From: a virus
Lineage: Duplodnaviria > Heunggongvirae > Uroviricota > Caudoviricetes
Reading direction: 5' to 3' (one strand)
Virus record (IMG/VR): IMGVR_UViG_2571042390_000001
DNA length: 64,000 nt
Within the stretch, counting starts at the first letter, position 1, and every line of letters begins with the position of its first letter. Below are positions 1 to 48,260 of the stretch, piece by piece. The notes below the pieces were generated by a model, which did no database searches, was not told the DNA's origin, and worked only from the letters and a program-made list of their open reading frames with translations. Made by a program: the position numbers and the translations under genes.

Positions 1-16
1 CGGCAACGGAAGGAGC

Positions 17-2674
17 ATGGGTATCTGGCGTGCCTATGAGCAAGGGCAGGCGGATGAATATCGCCAGTACCTGATCGATCATGCAAAAGAGTTTGGTCTG
101 AATCCTGACGACATTTCACAAATGTCTATGCCCGTATTGGTGCGAGAAAGACTCACAGATGTAGACCGCGCACAATTTGCCCGCGATTCAAACATCAGCG
201 ATCTGCAAGAGATGGCTGCAAGTGAAAAAGCGTATGCGGATGCGCAATTTCTCACTGAGAGCGTCATGGCGCTATTTAATCCTTCAGATGATGGAAATCT
301 ACTGGCGCGGTCCAATGATGCGTTTATTCGTGCGTTTTTGCGCGAAATAGGTGATACGGCGACGGCAGGTTTGCTTACTGCCGATGGGCGTCCAACGAAA
401 CAACTTATCGACCGCATCCAGAATGCAATTTTTGCCAAAGCGTACAAGGATGAAAGGCTTGTTCGGCTGGTGGCGGAAGAGCCAGATCCGGAAATGCGTA
501 ACATTCTTACCGCATTAAATACGGCAGCCAGCGATTTTGCGCAAATGCAGTCGCTTTCAGGTGATGTTCACCATGACACGGTAACCGGACTGGTAGACGG
601 TATAGAGCAATTGAATGGTCTGGATAAACAGGCTATTGCCGCGCTACAGGAAGCAATTAACCTTGTTCGTGAAGCAAAAGATAACGGTCAGGCAGTAGAA
701 GAGGTGATCGCACAGCGTGGATTGTTTGGAGATAGCACTCCGGAAGCAGAAGCGCTTGCTCTGTTTATTGTTGCCAACAACCGAAGCGCTAAGCGAATGG
801 GGGCAGCTTTCAAGAAACTGGCGCAAAAAATTAACGATGAACTTATTCACCAGCAACAAGCGTTAGGCGATATGTTCGGCGGCGGAGATGTCGATCTGCG
901 TAGCATTTTATCTGCCGTTTCTGATGAAATTGAGGCTGAGTATGGCGAAGGTAAAGGGCTTAATTTCGCCATGTTTGAATCGGTTTCAGGAGAGGTCGAA
1001 CCATACATTTCAAAGCTAATTGCTGATGCGACCAGCGTGGAGGACTTGATCCGAATCGTGAAGGTGTCAGAAAAAATTAAGGAGTCCGCAAAAAAAATAA
1101 AGCGCAATGTATTTTTGGAACTTGGTTTTTATATTCGCAATGTCACCGTTAATGAGATTAAGGAGTGGGCTAAACGTTATGGATACAGCGACGCTGTGTT
1201 AACAACGATGTTATTGTCTTATCAACGCAGCAATTTTTATGCTAACGCACTGCGTGACGCGATTGAAAAAGGAGATGAAGCTCCTTCGCTCGCAGATGAA
1301 AGAAATATTGATTGTGATATTGAAACGTTTTGCAACATATCAGAAGAAGGCGTGCCCGCTGAACAATTTATACGTGTTTTACATAATGCAGCAAAACATA
1401 TTCCTGATGACTTTAGTATTGATGAATTGCGCAATGGTTGTCTTGTTTGGTTAGGTAACTATTTAAAATCTCCAGCGTCTATTGCAGAGAAAACAGCTTT
1501 AAGATTTAGAAAGGAAATGAATAAAGCTGGAAGCGCAGAAGAGATGGTGTGCATAATCCAAAATACTTTGAAGTTATTCAAAAAGAGCTTGCATAATATC
1601 GACGATATTATGGCGGCTGGTAGGAAAATAACAGCCAGTGTCGGAGTTAGCTCTGAACTAACGGCAGAGGAGATCGCTGATGCGTATATTGAGACACTTG
1701 TCAGGCTTAAGGAGATAGTGGAATTAGCAGAGCATTCCTCATATTACGGAATCAAGGAGCGTGTTGACTTTACTATAGAACAAATCAATAAAGTTAGGTC
1801 AAATAAGGAAAAACTCACTGACTACCTTGCTGAGGTTTTGCACCAGAATGATCATGGGATTGGATATGATCTGAAAAAAATGCTTGTTTTTAATCTGGAC
1901 ATACCGGAAGACTTGCAAGCAGAACTATATGAAATAGCTTCATTAACACGTGGACAAAAAGCCTATCCTAATGCGCTTGAAAATGTAGTACATAAAAAAG
2001 TCAGAGCCGCATTTGACATGATTCTTGAATCGTCAAATGTGTCACATGACCAGTCTAAGGAATGGAGTCGTGGGATTGCTATTTCTGATGAAGCAGAGCA
2101 GTTAAGTGGTCACGATAATGAAACTTTCTCCCGTAAAGCATACAGTATTCGCGAGACGATTGAAAAAGCCTATATTATTTCAGGAGGGACTTTATCTACA
2201 TTAAAAAATATTAACCACAAGAACAATGTTCGTGCTTTTGCAAGTCGAAATGGGAATATAACAATTGATGCTAATAGTGATCACGAGCGTGTATTATGGC
2301 ATGAAATAGGTCACCATATAGAACATTCAAATCCCCATCTATTGGAGAGGGCCAAAGCCTTCATTAAATCAAAAACTAACGGTAAAGTTTCTTATCATAA
2401 TATTGGTAGCCGTGGCAGTGCTGAGTATTTGGTGCGAACCGACCTAAGTCATGGATATATGTCTAAAATTTATATGGAAAATACGGTAAGTTCTGTCAGC
2501 GGCAGATTTATATCAAAGCCACCTGCATTAAGCAATTGCAGGGCGACTGAGATTTTTTCTATGGCCTTGCAGATGTATGCCGATCCGGAGCAGGCGACTA
2601 ACTCTGTATTAAACAATGACGGCGTGCTGGAATTTTTCTTGGGATGTATGAAGGAGTTGCAAAATGAAGTATAG
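17..2674 (+). CDS. Large hypothetical protein (885 aa) with zincin-like HExxH motif (HEIGHH); possible virion-associated or anti-defense protein
   Basis: Long ORF with AGGAG RBS just upstream of ATG at 17; HEIGHH encoded at about 2300-2317; no other domain recognised. Confidence 0.55.
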   Translation: MGIWRAYEQGQADEYRQYLIDHAKEFGLNPDDISQMSMPVLVRERLTDVDRAQFARDSNISDLQEMAASEKAYADAQFLTESVMALFNPSDDGNLLARSNDAFIRAFLREIGDTATAGLLTADGRPTKQLIDRIQNAIFAKAYKDERLVRLVAEEPDPEMRNILTALNTAASDFAQMQSLSGDVHHDTVTGLVDGIEQLNGLDKQAIAALQEAINLVREAKDNGQAVEEVIAQRGLFGDSTPEAEALALFIVANNRSAKRMGAAFKKLAQKINDELIHQQQALGDMFGGGDVDLRSILSAVSDEIEAEYGEGKGLNFAMFESVSGEVEPYISKLIADATSVEDLIRIVKVSEKIKESAKKIKRNVFLELGFYIRNVTVNEIKEWAKRYGYSDAVLTTMLLSYQRSNFYANALRDAIEKGDEAPSLADERNIDCDIETFCNISEEGVPAEQFIRVLHNAAKHIPDDFSIDELRNGCLVWLGNYLKSPASIAEKTALRFRKEMNKAGSAEEMVCIIQNTLKLFKKSLHNIDDIMAAGRKITASVGVSSELTAEEIADAYIETLVRLKEIVELAEHSSYYGIKERVDFTIEQINKVRSNKEKLTDYLAEVLHQNDHGIGYDLKKMLVFNLDIPEDLQAELYEIASLTRGQKAYPNALENVVHKKVRAAFDMILESSNVSHDQSKEWSRGIAISDEAEQLSGHDNETFSRKAYSIRETIEKAYIISGGTLSTLKNINHKNNVRAFASRNGNITIDANSDHERVLWHEIGHHIEHSNPHLLERAKAFIKSKTNGKVSYHNIGSRGSAEYLVRTDLSHGYMSKIYMENTVSSVSGRFISKPPALSNCRATEIFSMALQMYADPEQATNSVLNNDGVLEFFLGCMKELQNEV

Positions 2675-5449: not shown

Positions 5450-6448
5450 ATGCAATCACTGAATACTGTTACGGATCGCTTCTCCCTGGTAGAGAAAATC
5501 CGCAAACACACACCGCAGAACAACCGAAATTACGTCATTCAGTCGGTACGAGACACATTCAACTCGCCAGAAACAAAAGAGCGTATCGCGCTGGGTGAGA
5601 TGTATGGTTATTACGGTCATGGTCGCCGGGCGATGCACTATAACAAAACGAAAAGCCTGAACTTGCCGGAAGTCTCTGTTGTGATGGTAGATGGGAAGCC
5701 TGTTGTATTGGAGAACGTGCCGTCAAACAGGACTATCGACATTTCGATTGACGACAACGGCATTGTTACTCATACGCAGGAAATACTGGATACAGACACC
5801 GGGCGTATTGTTCAGGGCATGATTAATTCTGGTGCTGGTGGTTGGTCGTGGGCTACATCTGGTCCAGATTCATCGGTATCCCTGGTAAAGTCTTTCCACG
5901 GCTTTGATTACGTAACTGTGCCTAACTATATCAGCCTCGACAAGAAAAGCCTGATGCTTGAATCAGCAGAAGAGCGCGATGCGGCTATTCATGCAGCACT
6001 TATCGAACAAGGTTTTACCGATAACGCTGCTACGGATCTGGTTCACCACTTTTCAGCAATGAAAAATCAGCAAGCCATGCTCGAATCTGCACATCGTGAA
6101 GCCCTGGAATCAGAATTGATGCTCCTTGAAGTGGAAAACATACAGCTTCGAGATAAGCTGCGCGCTCAAACAGCGATGATGGAAAGCCAGGGGGAAAATG
6201 CAAAGCAATACCGCCGGATTTTGCGTGAAGCTATCCAGGAAATGCCTGTTTTTATCAGCGCAGAACAGCGCCGGGCGCTCTGCCGTATGCAGTCTGAAGA
6301 TGATGCCCGCATAGTGGCTGCGATGCTTGAATCTCTTGGGGCAAATGCTACTTATGGCTTACCGGTATCAGGCAAGAAAGAACCAGAGTTATCACCGAAG
6401 GAGAACAAAAACACTACCCCGTTACTCTTCGTTTCCAGAAGGGGGTAA
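5450..6448 (+). CDS. Hypothetical protein with C-terminal coiled coil (possible scaffold or head-processing role)
   Basis: Heptad-like region LMLLEVENIQLRDKLRAQTAMMESQ; tight linkage to upstream ORF. Confidence 0.45.
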   Translation: MQSLNTVTDRFSLVEKIRKHTPQNNRNYVIQSVRDTFNSPETKERIALGEMYGYYGHGRRAMHYNKTKSLNLPEVSVVMVDGKPVVLENVPSNRTIDISIDDNGIVTHTQEILDTDTGRIVQGMINSGAGGWSWATSGPDSSVSLVKSFHGFDYVTVPNYISLDKKSLMLESAEERDAAIHAALIEQGFTDNAATDLVHHFSAMKNQQAMLESAHREALESELMLLEVENIQLRDKLRAQTAMMESQGENAKQYRRILREAIQEMPVFISAEQRRALCRMQSEDDARIVAAMLESLGANATYGLPVSGKKEPELSPKENKNTTPLLFVSRRG

Positions 6449-6466
6449 TCGCCTTGTTAAGTTAAA

Positions 6467-6475
6467 TTTCTAACA
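6467..6475. promoter_or_regulatory. Operator-like motif TTTCTAACA (candidate C1-type repressor site)
   Basis: One of about 15 intergenic copies of the same core; upstream of ORF 6649. Confidence 0.45.
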
Positions 6476-6562
6476 TAGTGTATTTATATACACTGTTGAT
6501 CCTGGTGGATGGGATCGAGTAGGATCGCGGTCACTGCTCCGGTAGCGACTGCCAAAAAAGCA

Positions 6563-6590
6563 AAAGCCGCTTCTCAGCGGCTTTTTGGGT
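6563..6590 (+). terminator. Rho-independent terminator (possibly bidirectional)
   Basis: aaagccgc/gcggcttt stem flanked by an A-run and a T-run. Confidence 0.6.
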
Positions 6591-6648
6591 GTATAAATCC
6601 ACTGCCATAGATTTATACGGTAGATAGATTTTTTCACGGAACTATCTG

Positions 6649-7611
6649 GTGAGTATTTTAAATTCAGTTTCAGTAACTTTCAACACTTCTGAGTATAAAA
6701 ACAACACTGAATACCACAAAAAAATCAAAGGTCATCAGTTGAGTTTTTTTGCTCGTCATAGCGGTCTTCTTTCCCCTTCACATAGCGCCATTATTGCCGA
6801 GTTCGCCAACCTGGCAGGGTCTACCGATGAATACATGATCCGTCGCTCATATGCTGATATGTCCGAGATTACAGGACGCAGTATTTCTACTGTGCGCCGG
6901 GCATTTGCTGAAGCGACGAAGTGCGGAATGCTTGTTAAGCAACATCAGGTAGCGAATAACAATGCCCAGGTGTGTAACGTATATCGGTTTACGACACAAT
7001 TTCTCCACTTCATTCATGTAGCAATGGAGATAGGGGGTAAGCAGGGCATCAAATTTGCCAACGCCACAAAACTGGTTAAGCAGTTGATTTCAAAGGTTCG
7101 TTATTTTTTTGAAACTGGGAACCCCCTGTTCAAATTGAACAAGTCCCCCCATGTTCAAAATGAACAGCCAATAGAAAATAAGAGTCACTCTATAGCCAAA
7201 AGAAGAGAAAGATCATGCGCGGTTCAGCCAAAGGCTTCACCTGCAGATAGTTCTCAAACGGATAACGGGGTACTGGATAAAAAACCAGTAATCAGGGAAG
7301 AACATACCAACCACTGCCTGGCGGCGGCAAAAGCGAGAGCTGCAAAGCGTCGTTCAGACGAGGGGCACGCAAAACGGCAGGCTCTGTATCGTACCGCTGA
7401 AAATCTGGCAAAAAAATTTGCATGGATACGTAGTGCCGCTACCGCAGTGAATAAGCCTAAACAATCCAGTGCCCTAGATTTCTCAATGGATTATTCTGGC
7501 TCCCAGGGGTGTGCAACCATTGGTGAAGCCTTTGACCTGATGAAACAGCGTGGCTATCGGTCTGAATTTGACCGTGAGGATTGGTCAATCCCTGCGGGAT
7601 TTAGGGGATGA
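6649..7611 (+). CDS. Putative DNA-binding protein (320 aa)
   Basis: HTH-like segment RSISTVRRAFAEATKCGMLV; operator-like motif upstream. Confidence 0.45.
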   Translation: MSILNSVSVTFNTSEYKNNTEYHKKIKGHQLSFFARHSGLLSPSHSAIIAEFANLAGSTDEYMIRRSYADMSEITGRSISTVRRAFAEATKCGMLVKQHQVANNNAQVCNVYRFTTQFLHFIHVAMEIGGKQGIKFANATKLVKQLISKVRYFFETGNPLFKLNKSPHVQNEQPIENKSHSIAKRRERSCAVQPKASPADSSQTDNGVLDKKPVIREEHTNHCLAAAKARAAKRRSDEGHAKRQALYRTAENLAKKFAWIRSAATAVNKPKQSSALDFSMDYSGSQGCATIGEAFDLMKQRGYRSEFDREDWSIPAGFRG

Positions 7612-7665
7612 CCTGTGTGTCTACAAAACATCCCAATGATCGGAAAATGCTCGGCCGATTATTTA

Positions 7666-7674
7666 TGTTAGAAA
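7666..7674. promoter_or_regulatory. Operator-like motif (TGTTAGAAA, reverse orientation) upstream of immI-like module 1
   Basis: Core motif plus variant TTTCTAAAA at about 7687-7696. Confidence 0.45.
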
Positions 7675-7899
7675 ATTAATTTGCTGTTTCTAAAACGGAA
7701 TGTATGATCTGCATCATCGACTGAAGTCATCCATTGCTGAAATTTTTAGTTGATCTTCCATGTTTTCAGGCTTATATTCATGCCGTCGTAGCAAATTCTG
7801 CGACCGGGTTTGACAGCCTGAATGTTAGTGCGGACAACCGCAGATTTCCGATATTGCGGTATTTTTGTGTCCGTAAACCGCGTTACGCCCGAATTATGG

Positions 7900-8000
7900 T
7901 GGGGCGTGATGGGGAGGCTTCGGCCTGCTGGTTTCACTAACGCCAGTCTGTCAACCCTGTCACGTCCTGCCACCTGTTTGACAGCGGGTGGCAGGTTGTT
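7900..8000 (+). ncRNA. Candidate c4-like antisense regulatory RNA (immI type), copy 1
   Basis: Non-coding region before icd-like gene; hairpin about 7966-7995; segments about 7921-7926 and 7935-7941 complementary to RBS region about 8007-8019. Confidence 0.35.
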
Positions 8001-8024
8001 AAACCTGTTAGTGAGGCCGTAACT

Positions 8025-8249
8025 ATGGTTAATGCCAATCCTTGCTCACGTCCAGAATTCATCTGGCGTTTCCACTCCCTGCAAAAACGCTGCGATCACT
8101 TCGCAATTGCCGCAACCGAAAAAGAAGCCCGTTCTCTGATCCCTGATCAGCATGGTGTTCTTACTGGTCGTTTCTCTACTTCCCCACAACCAAACACTAA
8201 TCCCTGGTATCGCAATATTACCAATCCCGGCATTGCGGAGGCTCACTGA
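8025..8249 (+). CDS. Icd-like small protein (host cell-division inhibitor Icd-like family)
   Basis: EFIWRF motif; stop overlaps start of the Rha/Ant-like gene; paralog at 48299. Confidence 0.55.
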   Translation: MVNANPCSRPEFIWRFHSLQKRCDHFAIAATEKEARSLIPDQHGVLTGRFSTSPQPNTNPWYRNITNPGIAEAH

Positions 8250-8956
8250 TGGGTATCTGCATTCTCGAAAAACTATCAATGACCAGCATTGAGATTGCGG
8301 AGCTGGTGGGAAGCCAACACTCTGACGTTAAACGTAGTATTGAGCGTATGGTTGCTCGAAGCATTATCCGAAAACCGCCAATGGCTGTTTTCGAAAAAAT
8401 CAATAACTTAGGATTGCGTCGTGGCGTTGAGGCTTACGTCTTCGAAGGCGAGCAAGGCAAACGAGACAGCATCATTGTCGTCGCGCAGCTCTCTCCCGAA
8501 TTCACCGCCCGGCTGGTGGACCGCTGGCGCGAACTGGAAGAACAAGTACGCCAGCCGTTGACCGAAATAGAGATGATCGCTGCAATGGCTGCGAATGCAG
8601 TTCAGCAGCAAAAGCTGATTCATGCTGTTGAGTCAAAGGTTAGCCAGGTCGCTGAAACCGTCGAGCAAATAAAGAAAGGCAATATTCCGGAAGGCTACAT
8701 TGGCTACCGCCAGTTGGCGGCGAAATGCGGCCTGACTGAAGCCAAATGCCGAAACCTTGTCAACGCTTACCGGATTCCCACCGATACACATGAGTTTTTG
8801 ACTCCAGAGGGGGTATTGTCGCGTCGTTCCATCGTGGCCTTATCTCCCTTCATGAATGCTTTTAACCGGATGATGTCGGAGGCTGAACACCGAGGAAAAC
8901 GCTGGTATCACCCCAAAATGGGGCAATTCCAGGTGATCGGTTGGGGAGGTGAGTGA
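8249..8956 (+). CDS. Rha-family phage regulatory / antirepressor-like protein
   Basis: N-terminal TSIEIAELVGSQHSDVKRSIERMVA Rha-type signature; occupies the ant position of an immI-like module. Confidence 0.6.
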   Translation: MGICILEKLSMTSIEIAELVGSQHSDVKRSIERMVARSIIRKPPMAVFEKINNLGLRRGVEAYVFEGEQGKRDSIIVVAQLSPEFTARLVDRWRELEEQVRQPLTEIEMIAAMAANAVQQQKLIHAVESKVSQVAETVEQIKKGNIPEGYIGYRQLAAKCGLTEAKCRNLVNAYRIPTDTHEFLTPEGVLSRRSIVALSPFMNAFNRMMSEAEHRGKRWYHPKMGQFQVIGWGGE

Positions 8957-9153
8957 TGGACATCATGCAGGCGGTAAAAAAAATCAGGGAAGGACAGGCT
9001 GAAGTGTGCCGCCGTAAAGCATGGAGTGTTGGTGTATGGGCCTGGCCTGATAATTACTCTACTACCGGATGGTTTTGTATTAATGGACTCCAGATCCGGG
9101 AAGTTGATTTATCGACGGCTGATATAGTCGGTAATGATTGGATCGTGACTTGA
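8953..9153 (+). CDS. Small DUF2829 (Tad2-family)-like protein
   Basis: AVKKIREGQAEVCRRKAW and C-terminal ADIVGNDWIVT signature; 4-nt overlap with Rha gene; same domain is fused to Rha in 48514..49455. Confidence 0.5.
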   Translation: MMDIMQAVKKIREGQAEVCRRKAWSVGVWAWPDNYSTTGWFCINGLQIREVDLSTADIVGNDWIVT

Positions 9154-9162
9154 AGCGTGATG

Positions 9163-9186
9163 CCCCGGCCTGGCCGGGGCTTTTTT
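9163..9186 (+). terminator. Rho-independent terminator
   Basis: ccccggcc/ggccgggg stem followed by T6. Confidence 0.65.
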
Positions 9187-9671
9187 CATGCCTCATTAGT
9201 TGAGGTTGCTGCGTCTCCGACTGGTAACAGGGCGGTATTGCGTGGTTCGCCAGCAGGCCAGCGATAGCCAGACACTCTTGATGTTGGGAATGCGCGAATA
9301 TTAACCGCATCCCCCTGGTTCCCACCCAGGACAAGCAGATCGCCATTGGCGCGGCGTCCGACAACGAAGCCTACGTGCCCACCGCCTACGCGGGTAAATA
9401 CAACGATACATCCGTATGCCGGTGTATCTAATTTCTCGCCCCAATCCAGATAGGATTTTGCCGACTCAAATCTTGTTGAGCGAATGCCTACACGTTCCAG
9501 CATTGCACCGACAAATGCTGCGCACCACGGCGTTTCATCGTCTTTAATTCCGCCGCGCTTGATGTCGCGCCAGAACTGAACGATTTCAGGGTTGTGTTTA
9601 GCGCCTTTTATTTCAGTCAAGCCAATGTGCTTACGGGCTTCAATTAGCCAGCGAGGTTCAATGTTTGCCAT
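9186..9671 (-). CDS. NlpC/P60-like (TIGR02594-type) putative peptidoglycan hydrolase
   Basis: Candidate catalytic Cys (PWCAAFV) and His (GGHVGFVVG) motifs. Confidence 0.5.
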   Translation of the reverse strand: MANIEPRWLIEARKHIGLTEIKGAKHNPEIVQFWRDIKRGGIKDDETPWCAAFVGAMLERVGIRSTRFESAKSYLDWGEKLDTPAYGCIVVFTRVGGGHVGFVVGRRANGDLLVLGGNQGDAVNIRAFPTSRVSGYRWPAGEPRNTALLPVGDAATSTNEA

Positions 9672-16659: not shown

Positions 16660-16695
16660 CAGATAAGGAGCGGCCCCAACTGGGGCCGAATTTGA

Positions 16696-17130
16696 ATGAC
16701 GACATTAATTGACACTGTAAAACCGACGGAATCCTACCTTGAGGACATTTTGCCGCAGGCGCTCAATGGCAGGAGTGAAGAGGCGTTTCTGGATGCATAT
16801 CTGAATGGCATGGTGGAAAGGCTGAAACGAGATCCACAGCTTTATCACCTTTATGGGCCGTGGTGGCCTGCGCTTAAAACGTTATTGCTGGAGCGCGGCG
16901 ACATATCATTTGGACAAGTTGTAGATAGTGATGTGGCAGAGATCTACAAAATGAGTCGCCCGGCGCTTACGGTTTTGGCTGGGCATCTGTATTCGAGCGA
17001 TCGCCTGGAAAATGACGCGGTATACAATCCTGTTCATGCTCTGGAAGTCGCACCTTATGCCGATGATACAGAGCCATACGTGTACACAAGTTACGACGAG
17101 TCTATAGAGAAATATCGAATTATGGGGTAG
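16696..17130 (+). CDS. Hypothetical protein (144 aa)
   Basis: ORF 37 bp after darB-like stop; probably same operon. Confidence 0.45.
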   Translation: MTTLIDTVKPTESYLEDILPQALNGRSEEAFLDAYLNGMVERLKRDPQLYHLYGPWWPALKTLLLERGDISFGQVVDSDVAEIYKMSRPALTVLAGHLYSSDRLENDAVYNPVHALEVAPYADDTEPYVYTSYDESIEKYRIMG

Positions 17131-17132
17131 CC

Positions 17133-17393
17133 ATGCGAAAGAATCGTAGGTTTACGGTCGAAGACCTAAAGGAATATTCCATATCGAAGGGGTATATCCT
17201 TGAGTTCCACCGATACAAGAAGGTTTTTACGCTGCGAAAAGCAGAAAACCCTGCGAACTGGAGCTGGATATACTTTCCTCACACCGATGATAAGTTGGTA
17301 GAACTTGTTGATGATTTAACCTATGAAGGTTGGTTGATCGCAATCGACAAGACAATCAAAGAATTATCCGAACAGGATAAAATAACCCTTTAA
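17133..17393 (+). CDS. Hypothetical protein (86 aa)
   Basis: Starts 3 bp after upstream stop. Confidence 0.4.
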   Translation: MRKNRRFTVEDLKEYSISKGYILEFHRYKKVFTLRKAENPANWSWIYFPHTDDKLVELVDDLTYEGWLIAIDKTIKELSEQDKITL

Positions 17394-17529
17394 AAATAAC
17401 AGGTTGGGTAAATGCCATGCGATTTACCCTCCTTGTTGATTAAGGTCACTCTTTACTCTAAAAGCAAATCCGACCTGTTGCATATAGACCATCCTTGAGT
17501 AGTATCTCTCTTGTTTTACAAATCTAACG

Positions 17530-18024
17530 TTGTTGTTATTATTTCGCATATTTACTATCAATGGGTGTGTTAGAAAAATAGCGCGAAAGAGAAGGCGTCG
17601 CAGTGAATATTCTGAAACATCCCCACATGCCGCAGCTCTTAGAGAACTGGAGAAAAACCCAGATCTAATCAAAAGGAACCATGAGCATTACGAGCAGGTT
17701 CGCGTCCTGGACTGGATGTATCGCAATATGCGTTATGTGTATGAGCATACTCACGCCACTCCAAACGGTGGCCTGCGAGGCATAAGGACGGCAATAAAAA
17801 TGGTGGCAGAGGGCCAAAAGAAGGGATATCCCGATCTTTCTATAGACCTTGCTTGTGGGGGATACCACGGAATGCGCATTGAGATGAAACATGGGAGAAA
17901 TCGCCTGACTCCCGAACAACTCGTCTGGATGACTCGCCTCACAGAAGCCGGTTACTACTGCTTTGAGGCGCGCAGTGCCGCTGAAGCCATAAAAGCTATC
18001 ACGGAGTATGTTTGTCTTGATTAA
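17530..18024 (+). CDS. VRR-NUC domain nuclease-like protein
   Basis: KKGYPDLSIDL ... RIEMKHGRNRLTPEQ PD-(D/E)xK-type motifs; true start is probably internal to the track ORF. Confidence 0.5.
   Translation: MLLLFRIFTINGCVRKIARKRRRRSEYSETSPHAAALRELEKNPDLIKRNHEHYEQVRVLDWMYRNMRYVYEHTHATPNGGLRGIRTAIKMVAEGQKKGYPDLSIDLACGGYHGMRIEMKHGRNRLTPEQLVWMTRLTEAGYYCFEARSAAEAIKAITEYVCLD
17568..17576. promoter_or_regulatory. Operator-like motif (TGTTAGAAA)
   Basis: Core motif in 5' region of the VRR-NUC ORF. Confidence 0.4.
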
Positions 18025-18038
18025 ACGGAGAAATCGTT

Positions 18039-18239
18039 TTGCGGTTACTTAACGTGGCAGAACTTATCCCTGCAGGAACTAATGCTATCGCTCGTCGTCG
18101 CTCATGGCAGCAGGCTCTATGTATTGAGATCTCGAAACGTATCAATGGAAGTTTTGAAGCTCGCAATATTGTTACTGGCGATAAGGTTCACATAACCCCG
18201 GAAAGTGCAAGCGCTGATGATTGGGAGTTTGTACATTGA
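18039..18239 (+). CDS. Hypothetical protein (66 aa)
   Basis: Short ORF between nuclease-like gene and next ORF. Confidence 0.3.
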   Translation: MRLLNVAELIPAGTNAIARRRSWQQALCIEISKRINGSFEARNIVTGDKVHITPESASADDWEFVH

Positions 18240-18535
18240 GCAAAAAATATTATGTGAGTCTGGCGTTCGCTGACGATGCGGGGAGGACGCGGAGTATCAC
18301 GTTGAGCACACCGGTTAAGGCTGTGACAGCGCCGTTAATCCGTGAAGCTCTCAGAGAGCTGGAATTGGGGGAAAACTCGGCACTGTTGTCGGTTAGTTGG
18401 TTCGGGAAAATGTCAGAGAAACAATACGTGGATGGAGTTACCCCAATAACAGTAATGAGGCTACTTTCATTGCTGCAATGGGCCATCGTACCTGTATTTA
18501 TCGCGTATCTTATTTATCAGGCTGCAACACAGTAA
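18221..18535 (+). CDS. Hypothetical protein with C-terminal transmembrane helix
   Basis: Hydrophobic C-terminus LLQWAIVPVFIAYLIY; terminator follows. Confidence 0.4.
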   Translation: MGVCTLSKKYYVSLAFADDAGRTRSITLSTPVKAVTAPLIREALRELELGENSALLSVSWFGKMSEKQYVDGVTPITVMRLLSLLQWAIVPVFIAYLIYQAATQ

Positions 18536-18543
18536 TTGCATAA

Positions 18544-18569
18544 AAACCCGCCAATTAGCGGGTTTTTTG
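18544..18569 (+). terminator. Rho-independent terminator
   Basis: aacccgc/gcgggtt stem followed by T-run. Confidence 0.65.
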
Positions 18570-18610
18570 TTTATTGCATCTTTCGATACTGTCATCAAAC
18601 TAATAAAATA

Positions 18611-18619
18611 TGTTAGAAA
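18611..18619. promoter_or_regulatory. Operator-like motif (TGTTAGAAA)
   Basis: About 30 bp upstream of ORF 18649. Confidence 0.45.
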
Positions 18620-18648
18620 AATAATTTAACAAAGTAACGGGAATAGCA

Positions 18649-19857
18649 ATGAGTCAACACACTGATACTTCTAATCTGGAAATTATCTCGACAGCAATTG
18701 AAACGCTGCGCACACAAATCGCTCTTATACAGAAACGGAATCCGGGTGATGACCTGTCAAAGCGACTGCACGAGAGTGTCATTGCCACTACAGATAACCT
18801 GGTGGCGGAAATCAACAAGCTGCTTGATGATGGGGCAGTTGATTACAATAAGCTGGTGGATCAGTTTGAGGAATACCAACAAGCAGTTAATGATGGCTTG
18901 ATCCGTTTTTCACAAGTCACAGGCGTATCAGCGACAGTTGAAAGCCTGGGTGATGCAGTTAATCAATTTGCCGCGAATATGCGTAATGAGATCGGCAATC
19001 TGGAAGCGCGTCTTGAACAGGCAAATACACTGCGTAAATCTGCCGAAGCCGATTTGAACCGTTACAAAAAAGACTATCCGCCAAGCCTGACAAAGCGGCT
19101 GGATGTTGCGGAGAAGGATAACCGCACGCTGAAAAGAGAGCGCCGGGAACTAAAAGAGCGTTTAACCAAGCTCAATCAGCAATGCATTGATTATCAAGGC
19201 GAAGGCGTCACACTGCGTAAAAAGTTGGCTACAGCGCAGAGCATTATCGAAACATTAAAGCGAGAGTGCTCACAGCTTGGTCACGATCTGAACCGTGCTT
19301 GTGGCATGGGACAAAGACCAGAGACATTTCCACTTATGTATGATGGAAGGGATGCCATTGCCTACATCCATGAGTATCCGCACGGCCTGGTTGCGGAAAC
19401 TGGGCAGCGTGGCGAAGCACTGCTGACGGCTAATTACCATCAACAAATCAGAACCAATCGCCTGTTAACGATGGATGTGATCCCATCGGTATGGGGAACG
19501 CCGCTTTACTATCGCCTGCCGGGCTTCGAAAAGGACTGGAATACCGACATAGACGAATGTCTCGCAGATAAAATTATGGCGTATCTGGAGACGGATTTTC
19601 CGCGCTTATATCGCCGGATTATGGACTCTAAGGATGCGCCAATCGATGAATTAAAAATGCGTCCGGAGACGCTGGAGGCAATCAAGCAGACGGAGTTTGA
19701 TACTGTATTCAGTGTGGCCTGCATTCCAAGCTGTTTCCATGAAAGCATCCCGTTCATGCAAGGAGATCGTCGTCAGGAAATCATTGACGCTTGCCGGGTA
19801 TGGGCGAACGAATGGGATAAGAAGAATGGGGGTGTAGAAGATCTTTATGGGAAATAA
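18649..19857 (+). CDS. Hypothetical coiled-coil protein (402 aa)
   Basis: N-terminal heptad-rich half, globular C-terminal half; operator-like motif upstream. Confidence 0.5.
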   Translation: MSQHTDTSNLEIISTAIETLRTQIALIQKRNPGDDLSKRLHESVIATTDNLVAEINKLLDDGAVDYNKLVDQFEEYQQAVNDGLIRFSQVTGVSATVESLGDAVNQFAANMRNEIGNLEARLEQANTLRKSAEADLNRYKKDYPPSLTKRLDVAEKDNRTLKRERRELKERLTKLNQQCIDYQGEGVTLRKKLATAQSIIETLKRECSQLGHDLNRACGMGQRPETFPLMYDGRDAIAYIHEYPHGLVAETGQRGEALLTANYHQQIRTNRLLTMDVIPSVWGTPLYYRLPGFEKDWNTDIDECLADKIMAYLETDFPRLYRRIMDSKDAPIDELKMRPETLEAIKQTEFDTVFSVACIPSCFHESIPFMQGDRRQEIIDACRVWANEWDKKNGGVEDLYGK

Positions 19858-20509
19858 TGTGTTAGAAATCTAAAATCACAATTCGAATGTATTGATTGTG
19901 AAGATAACTTAACATAGAATTTTCCTTGCTGGTGGGCGGTACCCACGTTTCGCTTGCTGGGCTTGATAGTCACTTATTGGTTATTGTTCGCCCACCAGCA
20001 TTTAACAAATTAAAGTGTTAGAAATGTATAGTAATGCAAGAGCACGCTTTGGCACCGTGCAGGCCAAAGTTCAGCAGGTTTAGTGCGGAAAGTGGTTTCA
20101 GAGAGAGCACTTTGCGGAGTAAACGACAATACATGTTGAGCCACGGAAGGTCTTTTTAAGGTGTTCATTGATGATGGTCCGGCAGAGAGTAACGGTACAT
20201 GCTGCATCTAATCATCAATGCACATCTTCAACATTAAGGAGGCATAGGGATTTTTGTGGCGGTTACCTTTTGCCCTGAGTCTCCTTAATGTTGCGGTAAT
20301 GCACCTATGCGGATGTGGCCTTGCATTGTGTCTTGAAAGAATGGGGTAAGGCCGGGGATATCCCCAGGGGGAGGCACCCCCGCTGCAACGAACAGCCACA
20401 GACGGCAGTCGAGTGATGGAAACGTGTAAAGACTTTAAACCTCGTTACGGCTGGCGTGGCAAACGCGACAACCGAGACAGAGCGGTGACGGGCGGAGAGA
20501 GTGCCGCAT

Positions 20510-21092: not shown

Positions 21093-21167
21093 GATGGTGT
21101 AGCTCAGCGGTAGAGCAGTTGGCTGTTAACCAACTGGTCGGTGGTTCGAATCCACCCACCATCGCCA
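21093..21167 (+). tRNA. tRNA-Asn (anticodon GTT)
   Basis: Cloverleaf: acceptor GATGGTG/CACCATC, T-arm GGTGG-TTCGAAT-CCACC, anticodon loop CTGTTAA, 3' CCA. Confidence 0.8.
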
Positions 21168-21172
21168 ATTTA

Positions 21173-21259
21173 GGGGAGTTAGTCCGTAGGGGTAGCGGGG
21201 TAGACTGTAAATCTACTGTCATTGCGACTCGGGTGGTTCGACTCCATCACTCCCCACCA
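21173..21259 (+). tRNA. tRNA-Tyr (anticodon GTA), long variable arm
   Basis: Acceptor GGGGAGT/ACTCCCC, anticodon loop CTGTAAA, type II variable arm, 3' CCA. Confidence 0.7.
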
Positions 21260-21263
21260 AATT

Positions 21264-21339
21264 GCCGGTTTAGCTCAGTTGGTAGAGCAGTCGCTTTGTA
21301 AGCGAATGGTCAGCGGTTCGATCCCGTTAACCGGCACCA
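21264..21339 (+). tRNA. tRNA-Thr (anticodon TGT)
   Basis: Acceptor GCCGGTT/AACCGGC, D-arm TAGCTCAGTTGGTAGAGC, anticodon loop TTTGTAA, 3' CCA. Confidence 0.8.
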
Positions 21340-21408
21340 ACACAACAGGTAAGAGCATTTGTAGAGTTCGACTCTCTACCGTGGGCTTTTTCCCGCGATG
21401 CGAGCCAT

Positions 21409-21439
21409 AAATGCTCTTACCGTTGTGATGAAGTGCAGC
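21409..21439. repeat. tRNA-array-associated repeat, copy R1
   Basis: aaatgctcttaccgttgtgatgaagtgc; 3' strand of a long hairpin that follows tRNA-Thr. Confidence 0.4.
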
Positions 21440-21650
21440 TCTTTGAAGCAACCAGAAGATAAGCATCTGGCTTCACAACATAAACCGCAGGAACGACCAA
21501 TAAACGGTAGTCCGTATGGAGAACACCCCGTTGAGGAAGAGGTCTGGCCGGAACCGTAACCGGCACTACAACGTTGAGAACACTGGCGTAACGGGGTCAT
21601 ATCCCAATCTACGAATAAATGTTGCGTTGCAGCGTGACAACCAGTGTTCT

Positions 21651-21674
21651 CAACATTGTGGTGAATGCGCAGGC
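21651..21674. repeat. tRNA-array-associated repeat, copy R2
   Basis: caacattgtggtgaatgcgcaggc; preceded by inverted repeat gttgagaacactgg/ccagtgttctcaac. Confidence 0.35.
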
Positions 21675-21793
21675 TGATGCGCGAAAGACATTGCAGCTAT
21701 TGCGGAAAAGAGCTGTTCGGCGGGGCAATTAAACGCCCGTGAGAGTCTGAAATAACCGCAAGCCGGAGATCAGCACCGGTCGCCACAATAACG

Positions 21794-21880
21794 GGAGAGT
21801 AGGGAGCATGGTGCTCAAGCGGTCTTGAAAACCGTCCCATTGCGCAAGCGATGATGGTTCGATTCCATTACTCTCCGCCA
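21794..21880 (+). tRNA. tRNA-Ser (anticodon TGA), long variable arm
   Basis: Acceptor GGAGAGT/ACTCTCC, anticodon loop CTTGAAA, type II variable arm, T-loop TTCGATT, 3' CCA; position 8 atypical. Confidence 0.6.
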
Positions 21881-21974
21881 GTGCAACATTAAGGGTATTT
21901 GGCTAATTAAGCGAATGCCGGAAGCAGAACCGGATCACCAAATGCGTACAGGCGTCATCGCCGCCCAGTCAGCC

Positions 21975-22004
21975 AAATGCTCTTACCATTGCGGTGAATG
22001 CGGC
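21975..22004. repeat. tRNA-array-associated repeat, copy R3
   Basis: aaatgctcttaccattgcggtgaatgcggc; follows tRNA-Ser. Confidence 0.4.
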
Positions 22005-22171
22005 TAAGCGCACGCGGAACAGTTAAAACAGTAAAGGTGGTCTTTTTACTGGCGTAACGAGAATCCATAAGTGATCCGGCGTTAATTGTTAACTGGTTAA
22101 CGTCACCGGGAGGCGCCCGGCACCGCAACCTAACAGCAATGGCGTTTTGTCTTAAAAGGTGGCTGCAAGTG

Positions 22172-22300
22172 ATGGATTTTTGGGCGTTTGCCGATAAAAA
22201 CCCGGAGTGGACATTATTGTTTCTGCTGGTGGTTGCATACGGGGTAGAGCAAGCGGCAAAAGCCTTACGCGGTTCTGGCAAAAAGCGTAAGCGTAATTAA
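22172..22300 (+). CDS. Small hydrophobic ORF (42 aa) inside the tRNA cluster
   Basis: AGGTGG RBS 8 nt upstream of ATG; predicted TM segment WTLLFLLVVAYGV and basic tail; below track size cutoff. Confidence 0.25.
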   Translation: MDFWAFADKNPEWTLLFLLVVAYGVEQAAKALRGSGKKRKRN

Positions 22301-22309
22301 CAGTAATCT

Positions 22310-22385
22310 GGCCCTTTAGCTCAGTGGTTAGAGCGGGCGACTCATAATCGCACGGTCACCGGTTCAAGTCCGGTAGGGGCCACCA
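22310..22385 (+). tRNA. tRNA-Ile2-like (anticodon CAT; may read AUA after lysidine modification, or be tRNA-Met)
   Basis: Near-identical in outline to E. coli ileX-type tRNA: GGCCC(T)TTAGCTCAGTGGTTAGAGC ... CTCATAA ... GGTTCAAGTCC ... CCA. Confidence 0.75.
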
Positions 22386-22837: not shown

Positions 22838-23413
22838 ATGTTAATGGCGAACGATAACGCATATACAGAAGAAGATCTCATTTTGAGTGACTTCATAGGG
22901 AAGCGTGAACGCTGGACCCAAAAGCGAGAGGAAATTTACGCCTCATTAGTTCGCAAAGGCGTCAATATCGAAACCGCACAGAGCGGCGATATGACAGTGG
23001 TAAGCGTTGGATTGCACGGTGTAAGCGTGTCAGCAATCAATCATGAGCCATACGTTGCGTTATCCGAGTCAATGGTAAGGTTAGTTAAGTTCCTGAAATA
23101 CACAGAAGCGAATAATGTAATCATTGGCAAAAAGAATATCCCTTTTTCCTCGGCTTTTTACTGGATGATGAAAGGGCTTGATGCCCGGCGGACATCATGG
23201 CCCAAAGGGAGCTATATATCGATGTTCCGTGGCAGTATTGGCAGCAAAGAAAAGCTCTTCGAATTCTTGCCGGAAGAGGCATTCGATATTGTGGAAGGGT
23301 GCGATGTGATGGTGATGCCTCGCCTGGTAATGATGAATGGGGATTTACAGGCGCAGACAGACTGGTTTGCAACTGGTGTGGATATTATCGCGACTGACTG
23401 GGAGGCTTTCTGA
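22838..23413 (+). CDS. Protein with C-terminal DUF2829 (Tad2-family)-like domain (191 aa)
   Basis: C-terminal AFYWMMKGLDARRTSW ... DIIATDWEAF matches the DUF2829 pattern. Confidence 0.5.
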   Translation: MLMANDNAYTEEDLILSDFIGKRERWTQKREEIYASLVRKGVNIETAQSGDMTVVSVGLHGVSVSAINHEPYVALSESMVRLVKFLKYTEANNVIIGKKNIPFSSAFYWMMKGLDARRTSWPKGSYISMFRGSIGSKEKLFEFLPEEAFDIVEGCDVMVMPRLVMMNGDLQAQTDWFATGVDIIATDWEAF

Positions 23414-27202: not shown

Positions 27203-28240
27203 TTACCAGAGCTTCGCGGCGTACTGCGTTTGGGGGAATGTGTATCCGTAACGTTCTTCGATTGCTTTGCCGTATTTTTTACGAGCTTCATTCAGTTTTA
27301 TGCCGGTCAGGTCGTCTCCAGAGGCCATCATTACGTCTAACAATTCCAGATCCATTTTATCCAGCCTTGCCATTGCTTCACGTGATGTACGTATCTTACG
27401 CTCAATGATATGGCGAATAGCCGGATCGGCATCCTCCAGCATCTTAGCGGATTTCTGCTTAAGGCTTTCATTGCGAATATCGATGTTCCTTAAGATGTAC
27501 GACTTCGCAACGTAGCTTGGCTGGTGTTTTTCCAGGTCACGAACACGATATAAGTTAAAATCGCCGAGAAGGCTGCAAGGTACCGATTCGACGCCAGAAT
27601 AAATTGTAATGCTCCGGCGCTCACCAACATTATTGACAACGGGGATCGTTGTCTTCGGTAGTCTTGCGAAAACCAATGCGCCATGTGCGCCAACTCTAAA
27701 GCGAGAAAGGGCATTGCTGCCTTCGATGTTTGTTGTCAGCACAACATCTGTATATGCCTCTTTACGCGCCCGGTAGATCTCGCCTTCAGGCTCAGCTTCA
27801 AAGAAGCGCTGTTCTTCTTCAAGAGCACCTACGATTTGAGAAAAAACCCTATTTTTCAGGCTTTTCTTTATGATTTTGTCGTATTTTTTGAGCAATTGTT
27901 CACGTGTAAATGTACGTGTTGTTGTAGCGCTTTGCACAACAACATGCGTGCTTTGATTGGTGTCCTCAATGATGAATGGGATCGGAGAATATACAGACTC
28001 AACAATGTTCGACGCTTTGCCGTCGGCATCGCGGCACATGTCAACGAAGGCTTTCCATTCAGCAAGACATTTTTCAGCTTCTTCTAATATGTTTTGGTCA
28101 TGCGTTAATGCAACATGGCGGAATTCCTCGCCAGCATAACTGGTATCATGGAAAACAGAGTTTGCGACCACCAGCTCTTTCCACCGTTCAGCGGTTTGCA
28201 GGAACCGTTTGTACTCTTTCTCGATCGACTTCTTACTCAT
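27203..28240 (-). CDS. Hypothetical protein (345 aa); candidate C1-like repressor by position
   Basis: Sits between pacB-like and lox-cre as c1 does in P1; operator-like motif directly upstream; no sequence-level confirmation. Confidence 0.4.
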   Translation of the reverse strand: MSKKSIEKEYKRFLQTAERWKELVVANSVFHDTSYAGEEFRHVALTHDQNILEEAEKCLAEWKAFVDMCRDADGKASNIVESVYSPIPFIIEDTNQSTHVVVQSATTTRTFTREQLLKKYDKIIKKSLKNRVFSQIVGALEEEQRFFEAEPEGEIYRARKEAYTDVVLTTNIEGSNALSRFRVGAHGALVFARLPKTTIPVVNNVGERRSITIYSGVESVPCSLLGDFNLYRVRDLEKHQPSYVAKSYILRNIDIRNESLKQKSAKMLEDADPAIRHIIERKIRTSREAMARLDKMDLELLDVMMASGDDLTGIKLNEARKKYGKAIEERYGYTFPQTQYAAKLW

Positions 28241-47497: not shown

Positions 47498-48091
47498 TTT
47501 TAAGTTGAATTGAAAAACTCTCCGATGTACATTCACTACCGATTGGCACACCGGTCAACTTTTTGAGACAAACTGTTTAGTTTTTCGTATTATTGCCTCC
47601 GCCATACCTATGGCGGTGCAATATAGGTGGCTGAAAAGCCCCCGTTGACTCACGGTGTTCCAGCCTTTATTGCGCCGCCACCAGACCGTGGAACAGTCGA
47701 TGGCGGCTCCGAAAGCAAGGAGTCACAACACTATGAACAACTACAGTCTTTTCCCATCACTCGTCTTCCACCACTCACGCGATAATCTGCATTCTTTGCT
47801 CGCGCCGGGGGTGTCAAAATGACTGTTCGCTACCTCAACTTTCAAATCAAGAACATTACTGGCGGTTGCTATGACTGGTTTGTCACTCTCGGAAAAGAAG
47901 TGATCACCGGGAAGCTGGATGAAGTGAAAGCTAAAGCAATGGCCTACGCCTGCAAGCAAGTCAGGAAGAAATCCGCCAAAGCATAAAATACTGACTGTTG
48001 CGCCCTGGCATTATCGTGGGGTATATTTCTACGGCACCTTAGAAAAACGGGTGCCGGGATTGGAACCCCGGATAATGTCAAAGGCGACACA

Positions 48092-48113
48092 GACGCCGAA
48101 CGCGTCTTTTTTT
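48092..48113 (+). terminator. Rho-independent terminator
   Basis: gacgc/gcgtc stem followed by T7. Confidence 0.5.
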
Positions 48114-48149
48114 GTGTCATGCCATCGCACAGCCATACTTAGCGTTTAG

Positions 48150-48260
48150 CTCAGAGATCAATGGTAGTGCTGGCTGGGCTGCCGAAAGGCAGGCCGGTTC
48201 CCTTTGACGCCGGTAGTTCCAACCCAGTCAGTGCTACCGCCATTGAGATTGGAACCTCAC
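48150..48260 (+). ncRNA. Candidate c4-like antisense regulatory RNA, copy 2
   Basis: Segments at about 48187-48191 and 48200-48206 complementary to RBS region of icd-like gene 2 (about 48280-48294). Confidence 0.35.

Follow-up and report, generated by a model that had tools for sequence, protein, structure and literature searches.

The genes that follow darB in a D6-like phage-plasmid: homologues of P1 Ulx, PmgM, PmgR and PmgS, and a candidate repressor operator

A group of small genes lying directly behind the gene of a packaged anti-restriction protein raises an obvious question: do these genes form an accessory module with that protein, or are they familiar parts of a phage genome in a new arrangement? 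The question is posed by positions 16696–19857 of IMG/VR virus record IMGVR_UViG_2571042390_000001 (Duplodnaviria; Heunggongvirae; Uroviricota; Caudoviricetes), where six open reading frames (ORFs) on the + strand follow a darB-like gene within the 64,000-nucleotide stretch of DNA that was analysed, hereafter the window. The original prediction, made from the sequence alone, had described five small ORFs behind darB, one of them with nuclease motifs, and a terminator, an operator-like motif and a 402-amino-acid (aa) coiled-coil protein after them. It had assigned no role to any of these proteins, and it had considered that a nuclease next to a packaged anti-restriction protein could serve DNA repair, recombination, or attack on host DNA.

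The evidence collected here points to familiar parts. We read the locus, with a probability of roughly 85%, as an ordinary gene block, conserved in the D6 clade of P1-family phage-plasmids and organized in three transcription units (Table 1). The first unit would be the tail of the darB operon, carrying the ulx-like gene and orf86; the second would comprise the pmgM-like gene, orf66 and the pmgR-like gene, tightly spaced or overlapping and closed by a strong terminator; and the third would hold the pmgS-like gene alone, behind a promoter with the best copy of a 17-bp motif around its −10 element.

Identity and distribution of the block

Over the whole of 16696–19857, the block shares 99.3% nucleotide identity with Escherichia phage D6, a P1-like plasmid prophage, and it is matched at 100% identity by the E. 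coli plasmid NZ_CP117014.1. In a plasmid collection it is present in 112 plasmids of ~88–96 kb, all but one of which (111) are non-mobilizable and whose host species are nearly all E. coli, Salmonella, and Shigella; D6-like phage-plasmids are widespread in the first two of these hosts. The six ORFs correspond, in identical order, to orf14–orf9 of D6 (NC_050154/MF356679), which are labelled there as ulx-like, hypothetical, pmgM-like, hypothetical, pmgR-like, and pmgS-like, and RefSeq plasmid records use the names "olxA," "VRR-NUC domain-containing protein," and "DivIVA domain-containing protein" within the same block. With the D6 annotation, the P1 counterparts, and more than 100 sequenced plasmids, the block is already known. 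Outside the block, the window is for the most part colinear with D6 but contains insertions and deletions, with 77–98% identity in the matched blocks, and it differs from D6 in having additional genes for tRNA-Tyr and tRNA-Met(CAT) and in lacking tciA/tciB. The DNA analysed is a mosaic that is related to D6 but is not D6 itself.

These comparisons bear directly on what had been claimed for the locus. The ORF coordinates of the original prediction are exact, and so is its account of the five small ORFs (144, 86, 164, 66, and 99–104 aa) as lying on the strand of darB. Its statement that no protein had an assigned role was wrong, four of them being homologues of P1 Ulx, PmgM, PmgR, and PmgS that are annotated in D6. 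It had also named homology to characterized P1 morphogenesis or lysis genes as the finding that would speak against it; such homology was found for Ulx and PmgR, and it is nominal for PmgM and PmgS, which carry the name "putative morphogenetic" although P1 can do without either.

The order darB–ulx–small ORF–VRR_NUC–small ORF–pmgR–pmgS is conserved in five distant relatives, from Raoultella and several metagenome assemblies, with orf86 at the same position in five and orf66 kept in four. These two small ORFs have no P1 counterpart, and a search of 50,697 phage records (tblastn, E value [E] ≤ 1e-3) returned D6 as their sole match, which marks them as specific to the D6 clade. No known RNA family was found by Rfam within 16696–19857, and for the six proteins PADLOC and NCBIfam gave nothing but coiled-coil noise far below the cut-offs.

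Table 1. Features of the darB–pmgS block, with window coordinates unless a relative is named (PWM, position weight matrix; HhH, helix-hairpin-helix; alpha-CTD, C-terminal domain of the RNA polymerase alpha subunit; L008 to L017, relatives of the block)
Feature	Coordinates	Strand	Description
darB-like gene, 2278 aa	9823–16659	+	ORF; "similar to P1 gene darB" in D6; head of the first unit, given as context
GC-rich hairpin in the darB/ulx gap	16671–16688	+	GGCCCCAACTGGGGCC then GAATTTGA; without a T-run
ulx-like gene, 144 aa	16696–17130	+	Accessory component of the Dar anti-restriction system, by homology
orf86, 86 aa	17133–17393	+	phrog_6844 (unknown function); occupies the slot of lxc (bof) in P1
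Hairpin after orf86	17398–17437	+	Weak T-rich tail; from terminator scan
Candidate promoter for pmgM–orf66–pmgR	17478–17505	+	TTGCAT-16-TAGTAT, putative, read from the sequence
pmgM-like gene, 164 aa	17530–18024	+	TTG start; standalone VRR-NUC/PD-(D/E)xK nuclease
Weaker operator-like copy	17568–17584	+	PWM score 22.8; within codons 13–18 of the annotated pmgM-like ORF
orf66, 66 aa	18039–18239	+	phrog_7206 (unknown function)
pmgR-like gene, 99 aa	18236–18535	+	TTG start overlapping the orf66 stop; homologue of the P1 head-completion/head-tail-joining factor
Intrinsic terminator closing pmgM–orf66–pmgR	18542–18567	+	10-bp stem with 5 GC pairs, then TTTTTTG
Candidate pmgS promoter/operator region	18581–18627	+	−35 TTTCGA (18581–18586), 17-nt spacer, −10 TAAAAT (18604–18609)
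pmgS-like gene, 402 aa	18649–19857	+	Putative transcription unit of its own; phrog_1660, E 1e-146
(HhH)2 domain part of pmgS	19639–19803	+	Residues ~331–385; resembles alpha-CTD and the RAD51 N-terminal domain
Operator-like copy	19860–19876	+	PWM score 30.0; immediately 3′ of the pmgS stop
D6-clade PmgR-like genes	window 18236–18535; L008 9599–9892; L010 9604–9897; L015 3572–3868; L016 3581–3874; L017 3595–3897		Hydrophobic C-terminal segment

From anti-restriction to nuclease and head completion

The darB-like product that heads the first unit is 43% identical to P1 DarB over 2000 aa (tblastn), and the ulx-like start at 16696 directly follows the darB stop at 16659 on the same strand, an order equal to that of P1. 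The Ulx-like protein shares 46% identity with P1 Ulx over 138 aa (E 8e-39) and matches phrog_1629, "Ulx-like anti-restriction," over its full length (E 2e-59). Other dar genes are represented by a ddrB-like region at window positions 1–978, beside which ddrA and darA are annotated in D6. P1 has six Dar proteins, among them Ulx, which enhances the incorporation of DarB (PMC12810830; PMC10695390), and ulx is non-essential in P1 (PMC10695390). By homology, the Ulx-like protein would be a capsid-internal Dar component that promotes DarB incorporation, and DarB would then shield the injected DNA against type I restriction; the packaging of Ulx, its role in DarB incorporation, and protection against EcoK/EcoB are known for P1 alone, and for the protein of the window they may be expected by analogy.

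Two hairpins frame the ulx-like gene and orf86. The one in the darB/ulx gap (−16.2 kcal/mol, z = −3.3) is probably not a full terminator, and the one after orf86 (−17.1 kcal/mol, z = −3.7; none of 200 shuffles as stable) likely ends the darB–ulx–orf86 unit. As for orf86, equivalence with Lxc/Bof was considered and rejected: BLASTP against P1 Lxc gave no alignment, and hhalign gave a probability of at most 1% with 3- and 13-sequence profiles, the Lxc profile being without depth as the retrieved Lxc relatives are near-identical to one another. Agreement between orf86 and Lxc is confined to position and size.

The nuclease belongs to the second unit. The earlier VRR-NUC/PD-(D/E)xK call holds, for the PmgM-like protein matches the Pfam family VRR_NUC (PF08774) over residues 45–150 with 27.0 bits, above the cut-off of 23.8 (E 5e-6), and P1 PmgM and two distant relatives all keep its PD...ExK residues D102 (in GYPDL), E118, and K120 (in IEMK). 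It is 57% identical to P1 PmgM (E 7e-42), which has ~18 extra C-terminal residues. The protein matches one solved structure, psNUC (PDB 4QBL; E 9e-14, residues 55–163), with its active-site stretch GYPDLSIDLACGGYHGMRIEMK aligned with GYPDLIIDIARGAYHGLRIEIK of psNUC. The two have in common the GYPDL...YHG.RIE.K stretch, a single-domain architecture, and a similar size, and the PmgM-like protein differs in an extra basic N-terminal segment of ~45 residues. As a dimer, psNUC binds four-way junctions at sub-nanomolar affinity and cuts them symmetrically, leaving linear duplex DNA uncut, and such symmetric resolution by dimers has been described for psNUC, stNUC, and saNUC (PMC4103454). Because its match is a junction-cutting dimer, we infer that the PmgM-like protein is a junction- or branch-specific endonuclease of the Holliday-junction type. 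Such an enzyme would trim branched intermediates of replication or recombination, a role that would be dispensable in P1, where pmgM, like pmgS, is non-essential by deletion and CRISPR interference (PMC10695390).

Could this nuclease instead cooperate with packaged DarB in an uncharacterized accessory module, for host DNA attack or for repair of injected DNA? Its gene follows darB at a distance of 871 bp and shares its strand, and this adjacency is conserved across the D6 clade; moreover, VRR-Nuc domains occur in type VI secretion effectors, which shows the fold to be usable as a toxin (PMC9635880). Against this, the P1 record places the orthologous pmgM ~60 kb from darB–ulx in a different operon, so that the adjacency is a rearrangement specific to the D6 lineage, and within the block itself orf86 and pmgM are parted by a hairpin and by separate promoter/operator-like signals. 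In a knockout survey of P1, 24 of 29 single-gene mutants had neither a plaquing defect nor a change in anti-restriction (PMC9024508), and the genes listed as non-essential on its basis include pmgM (PMC10695390). The nearest solved relative is, moreover, the junction resolvase just described, which spares linear duplexes (PMC4103454). A connection between nuclease and DarB is not supported beyond adjacency, and we consider cooperation of the two in such a module very improbable.

The preferred account of a separate pmgM–orf66–pmgR unit draws on the candidate promoter upstream of pmgM, of which the AGTAGTAT element is conserved in relatives and the AAGTAGTAT block in L008 and L010. In these same two relatives, an operator-like sequence stands between the conserved −10-like element and the pmgM start codon.

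The middle gene of this unit, orf66, has no Pfam hit in its window version. Profile comparison with Tad2-like/DUF2829 (PF11195) gave a faint and not significant signal, with one of five family members matching at E 0.15, and comparison with the window's own Tad2-like domain was likewise faint (hhalign probability 8–16% over 23–24 columns). That domain belongs to a 191-aa ORF at 22838–23413, hypothetical in D6, which has an above-cut-off Pfam match to Tad2-like (Thoeris anti-defence 2-like, DUF2829; E 9.5e-10). A 66-aa ORF after ant (8953–9153) has a sub-threshold Tad2-like match (E 0.034).

The PmgR-like protein, for which an alternative start at 18221 would give 104 aa, is 31% identical to P1 PmgR over 61 aa (BLASTP, E 3e-6) and matches phrog_3177, the family of P1 PmgR itself (E 2e-6). 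Deletion of pmgR in P1 leaves heads and tails unjoined (PMC9024508). By homology, the protein of the window would be a small factor that joins filled heads to tails, here with an extra hydrophobic tail. Its C-terminal hydrophobic stretch reaches a Kyte–Doolittle 19-residue maximum (KD19) of 1.99, compared with 0.88 in P1 PmgR, and a hydrophobic, transmembrane-like C-terminal segment is present in six of six D6-clade PmgR-like proteins (KD19 1.67–2.45). P1 PmgR has 72 aa and no hydrophobic segments, and the 99-aa protein departs from it in both respects. The terminator proposed ahead of the 402-aa ORF is borne out by the 10-bp stem and T-run that close this unit (−15.1 kcal/mol, z = −4.6 relative to shuffles), and an equivalent was found in all relatives.

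The 17-bp motif and the PmgS-like protein

Which signals separate the last gene from those before it? The operator-like motif that the original prediction had noted upstream of the 402-aa ORF belongs to a family of sites with the form TGTTAGAAA-NN-TAAnTT. TGTTAGAAA occurs 12 times in the 64-kb window; a position weight matrix (PWM) built from these occurrences retrieves 15 sites, 14 of them intergenic; and the 17-mer TGTTAGAAANNTAANTT with up to two mismatches is found 10 times where 0.59 are expected, a count that none of 100 shuffles reached. Placed by colinearity with the D6 annotation and by the ORFs and RNAs of the window itself, the sites lie in the pro/repL and cre/orf117 gaps, upstream of both C4-RNA/icd/ant modules, of lpa, and of ref, twice upstream of the tRNA cluster, at the pmgM start, and upstream of pmgS, and as an overlapping inverted pair upstream of hrdC–dmt. 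Inverted pairs occur at 7666/7687, 43979, 46831, and 59672/59701. A c1 homologue of 345 aa (27203–28240, minus strand) carries a copy 12–28 bp upstream of its own start codon.

In the record of P1, operators of the repressor C1 are marked for ref, dmt, ban/tRNA, pmgL–M, pmgR–S, lpa, and c1, and Op86a/b carries the remark "controls expression of pmgR and pmgS." The repL gene and the immI (icd/ant) region of P1 are likewise under C1 control. From placement and P1 analogy, we infer that the 17-bp motif is the operator of a D6-type C1 repressor, one that may already be described.

The copy upstream of pmgS is the strongest of all. It has the top PWM score in the window (32.7) and no mismatch to the 17-mer pattern (TGTTAGAAAAATAATTT, 18611–18627), and together with a degenerate left half-site, AAACTAA (18597–18603), it brackets the −10 hexamer of the candidate promoter. 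In five relatives with PmgS proteins just 45–55% identical, most keep the terminator followed by TTTCTAA-TATAAT-(N2-3)-GTTAGAAA in the pmgR–pmgS spacer, an inverted repeat around the −10 hexamer. L008, L010, and L017 have a −35 element, TTTACA or TTTACT, 16 nt upstream of this hexamer; that of L015 is weaker, and in L016 the right half-site is degenerate. A further copy at the 3′ end of pmgS, the first element of a conserved regulatory region ahead of the tRNA cluster, is conserved in L008, L010, L016, and L017. If the motif is a C1 operator, pmgS would be off in the prophage and on upon inactivation of C1.

The same motif could, in principle, be the recognition element of D6-type late promoters that depend on Lpa. 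It ends in a −10-like hexamer, TAAnTT, much as P1 late promoters pair a 9-bp box with a −10 element, and the window has no excess of the P1-type late box AAGTGACTT (14 hits, 13.6 expected), so that late promoters of D6 must look different. Its distribution argues otherwise: copies precede c1, lpa, repL, the two C4/icd/ant modules, ref, and hrdC–dmt, which are early or immunity operons in P1, whereas no copy was found ahead of any packaging or tail operon that the window contains, and several sites are palindromic pairs around a −10 hexamer, the geometry of a repressor operator. A late-promoter element therefore seems a most unlikely identity for the motif, and the C1 operator remains the preferred one.

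The PmgS-like protein encoded behind this candidate operator is 21% identical to P1 PmgS by tblastn, and profile comparison aligns the two almost from end to end (hhalign probability 99.1%, E 5e-19, residues 8–398 with 12–416, 368 aligned columns). D6 and the RefSeq plasmids use a GTG 15 nt upstream as the start codon; the window has GTA there, and the 402-aa start is thus the right one for the window. A word-indexed search yielded nine full-length close relatives, to which a repeat with the PmgS alignment added none, and an exhaustive search of 1.84 billion proteins with a profile of the C-terminal half yielded 45 cluster representatives, most of 350–470 aa with the conserved region at the C-terminus and a few fragmentary or longer.

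An AlphaFold model built on 43 sequences (mean confidence, pLDDT, of 83; an earlier run with nine close homologues had given a poor model with pLDDT 62) shows residues 7–217 as four long helices. The former description as a coiled-coil protein is borne out in its helical part by this model; matches to coiled-coil families lie below threshold. The helical N-terminal half probably dimerizes. A beta-rich region at ~226–280 has no structural match by Foldseek, and the helical C-terminal part holds a domain that resembles alpha-CTD, the C-terminal domain of the RNA polymerase alpha subunit. The PmgS sequence itself found nothing significant in the PDB; a profile of the last ~100 residues matched the helix-hairpin-helix (HhH) domains of alpha-CTD, the RAD51 N-terminal domain (RAD51-NTD), Brr2, and NusA there with E values of 1e-7 to 1e-4. 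Pfam RNA_pol_A_CTD was matched by 4 of 43 family members (best E 5e-7), and the model superposes locally on alpha-CTD chains at 1.8 Å over 56 columns with a probability of 0.96–0.99. Compared with alpha-CTD and RAD51-NTD, the ~55-residue module of PmgS is fused to a ~210-residue coiled coil and a small beta-rich region.

What such a protein does bears on the labels it has received. D6 orf9 is a "putative prohead scaffolding protein" in GenBank (MF356679) and "PmgS-like head morphogenesis" in RefSeq; PHROG 1660 is categorized under "head and packaging," and the long, helical N-terminal half recalls many scaffolds. Several facts run counter to the label. P1 pmgS is non-essential by deletion and CRISPR interference (PMC10695390), the main text of the paper on the P1 virion proteome does not mention PmgS (PMC9024508), and scaffolding in P1 is assigned to the N-terminal domain of the major capsid protein, P1 being without a separate scaffold (PMC9024508; PMC12810830). 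The gene does not adjoin portal, protease, or capsid genes and lies ~12 kb from prt/pro; its promoter here is of the repressor-operator type, and in P1 annotated C1 operators precede the gene; and an alpha-CTD-like HhH domain is no scaffold feature. Taken together, this architecture, the early-type promoter, and the dispensability of pmgS in P1 disfavor scaffolding, which we hold to be improbable, and a DNA- or transcription-associated early function appears preferable. As a tentative proposal, to which we would give less than even odds, the PmgS family may comprise early, C1-repressed, non-structural coiled-coil dimers whose alpha-CTD-like (HhH)2 domain targets DNA or the transcription machinery of the host, for example through mimicry of alpha-CTD, in the lytic switch or in plasmid maintenance. 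If this were true, the D6-type operator set would represent a complete second C1 regulon, comparable with that of P1.

Several observations weigh against parts of the three-unit account and the roles proposed within it. The motif departs from the P1 operator: the 17-bp P1 C1 consensus ATTGCTCTAATAAATTT has no match with up to three mismatches in the 64 kb, and the common part is limited to the TCTAA/TTAGA core; the operator assignment leans on placement and on analogy with P1. The pmgM-like gene would start with an unusual TTG (17530/17533), the sole in-frame start of the ORF and without an obvious ribosome-binding site, which leaves the N-terminus uncertain; relatives begin PmgM ~13–17 codons later, where the window has GTT or GCG, and RefSeq records disagree on the length of the protein (98, 157, 163, or 164 aa). 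A consensus scan favors, over the candidate pmgM promoter, TTTACA-16-TATTAT at 17515–17542, from which transcription would begin downstream of the sole in-frame start codon. The hydrophobic tail of the PmgR-like protein is not easily reconciled with a soluble head-completion factor. For PmgS, a Foldseek search with the whole model gave no hit at E ≤ 0.001, and the local alpha-CTD and RAD51-NTD matches alone are meaningful. The second HhH hairpin, moreover, is without its G-h-G motif in the D6 lineage, where PFMQGD takes the place of the hairpin motif that distant members retain (e.g., IKGMGxKTA); with this motif lost, DNA binding may not have been retained in the D6 lineage.

Neighbouring regions and comparison with P1

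The surroundings of the block offer further observations. Immediately downstream of pmgS, the region 19858–20035 has operator-like copies at 19860 and 20016 that flank a sigma70-like promoter (TTGATT-17-TAGAAT, 19892–19920) and a stem-loop (19927–19999, −33.8 kcal/mol). This layout is kept in five distant relatives ahead of the tRNA cluster, with L015 lacking a clear first operator copy or −10 element. The region has no Rfam match; it may be the counterpart of the Oban/dicF-like region of P1, or may encode a small RNA. Beyond it, the + strand carries five tRNA genes at 21093–22385 (Asn-GTT, Tyr-GTA, Thr-TGT, Ser-TGA, and a Met/Ile2-type CAT). The D6 record has three tRNAs, on the opposite strand, and the window thus has two more while lacking the D6 tciA/tciB segment. 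Two C4 antisense-RNA immunity modules lie at 7772–7977 and 48034–48244, each upstream of an icd/ant pair and each preceded by an operator-like site, the former with a c4-a1b1 target match and the latter with an isrK match.

Just upstream of darB and divergent from it, on the minus strand (9186–9671), lies a gene for a CHAP-domain protein (E 2.7e-7), called "baseplate hub subunit and tail lysozyme" in the RefSeq record of D6; its position is kept in L008, L009, and L010, for which flanks were retrieved. Among the relatives, L015 has pentapeptide-repeat, ABC-transporter, and YcaO genes downstream of pmgS (6406–9254) that resemble part of a microcin B17-type cluster. Tn3-family transposons adjoin the cluster in L011 (199–7392) and L008 (13603–16800), and in L011 a transposon with SIR2_2 and DUF87 genes stands in place of darB–pmgM, with a 76-aa ORF, the pmgR-like gene, and pmgS remaining.

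With the block itself already known, the analysis adds three points: the candidate D6-type C1 operator, the affinity of PmgM to junction resolvases, and the alpha-CTD-like domain of PmgS. For annotation, it corrects the view that no role had been assigned, marks PmgM as a likely junction resolvase, and argues against "prohead scaffolding" as a label for D6 orf9 and its relatives. A 17-bp candidate operator of the D6 immunity type would, in addition, allow the C1 regulon of D6-like phage-plasmids to be mapped.

In the darB–ulx–lxc operon of P1, darB is followed by ulx on one strand, as here; the P1 operon is then followed by mod/res, whereas the D6-type block continues with pmg genes. P1 pmgL–pmgM stands under LPpmgL/Op82, whereas here pmgM, orf66, and pmgR form one tight unit without pmgL. 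In both phages pmgR directly precedes pmgS, with repressor-operator-type control that is annotated in P1 and probable here; in P1, pmgR ends 2 nt before pmgS, whereas here a terminator and a promoter/operator region come between them. Three blocks that P1 keeps apart are joined in the D6 clade, and the result is a rearrangement of known parts and not a new system.

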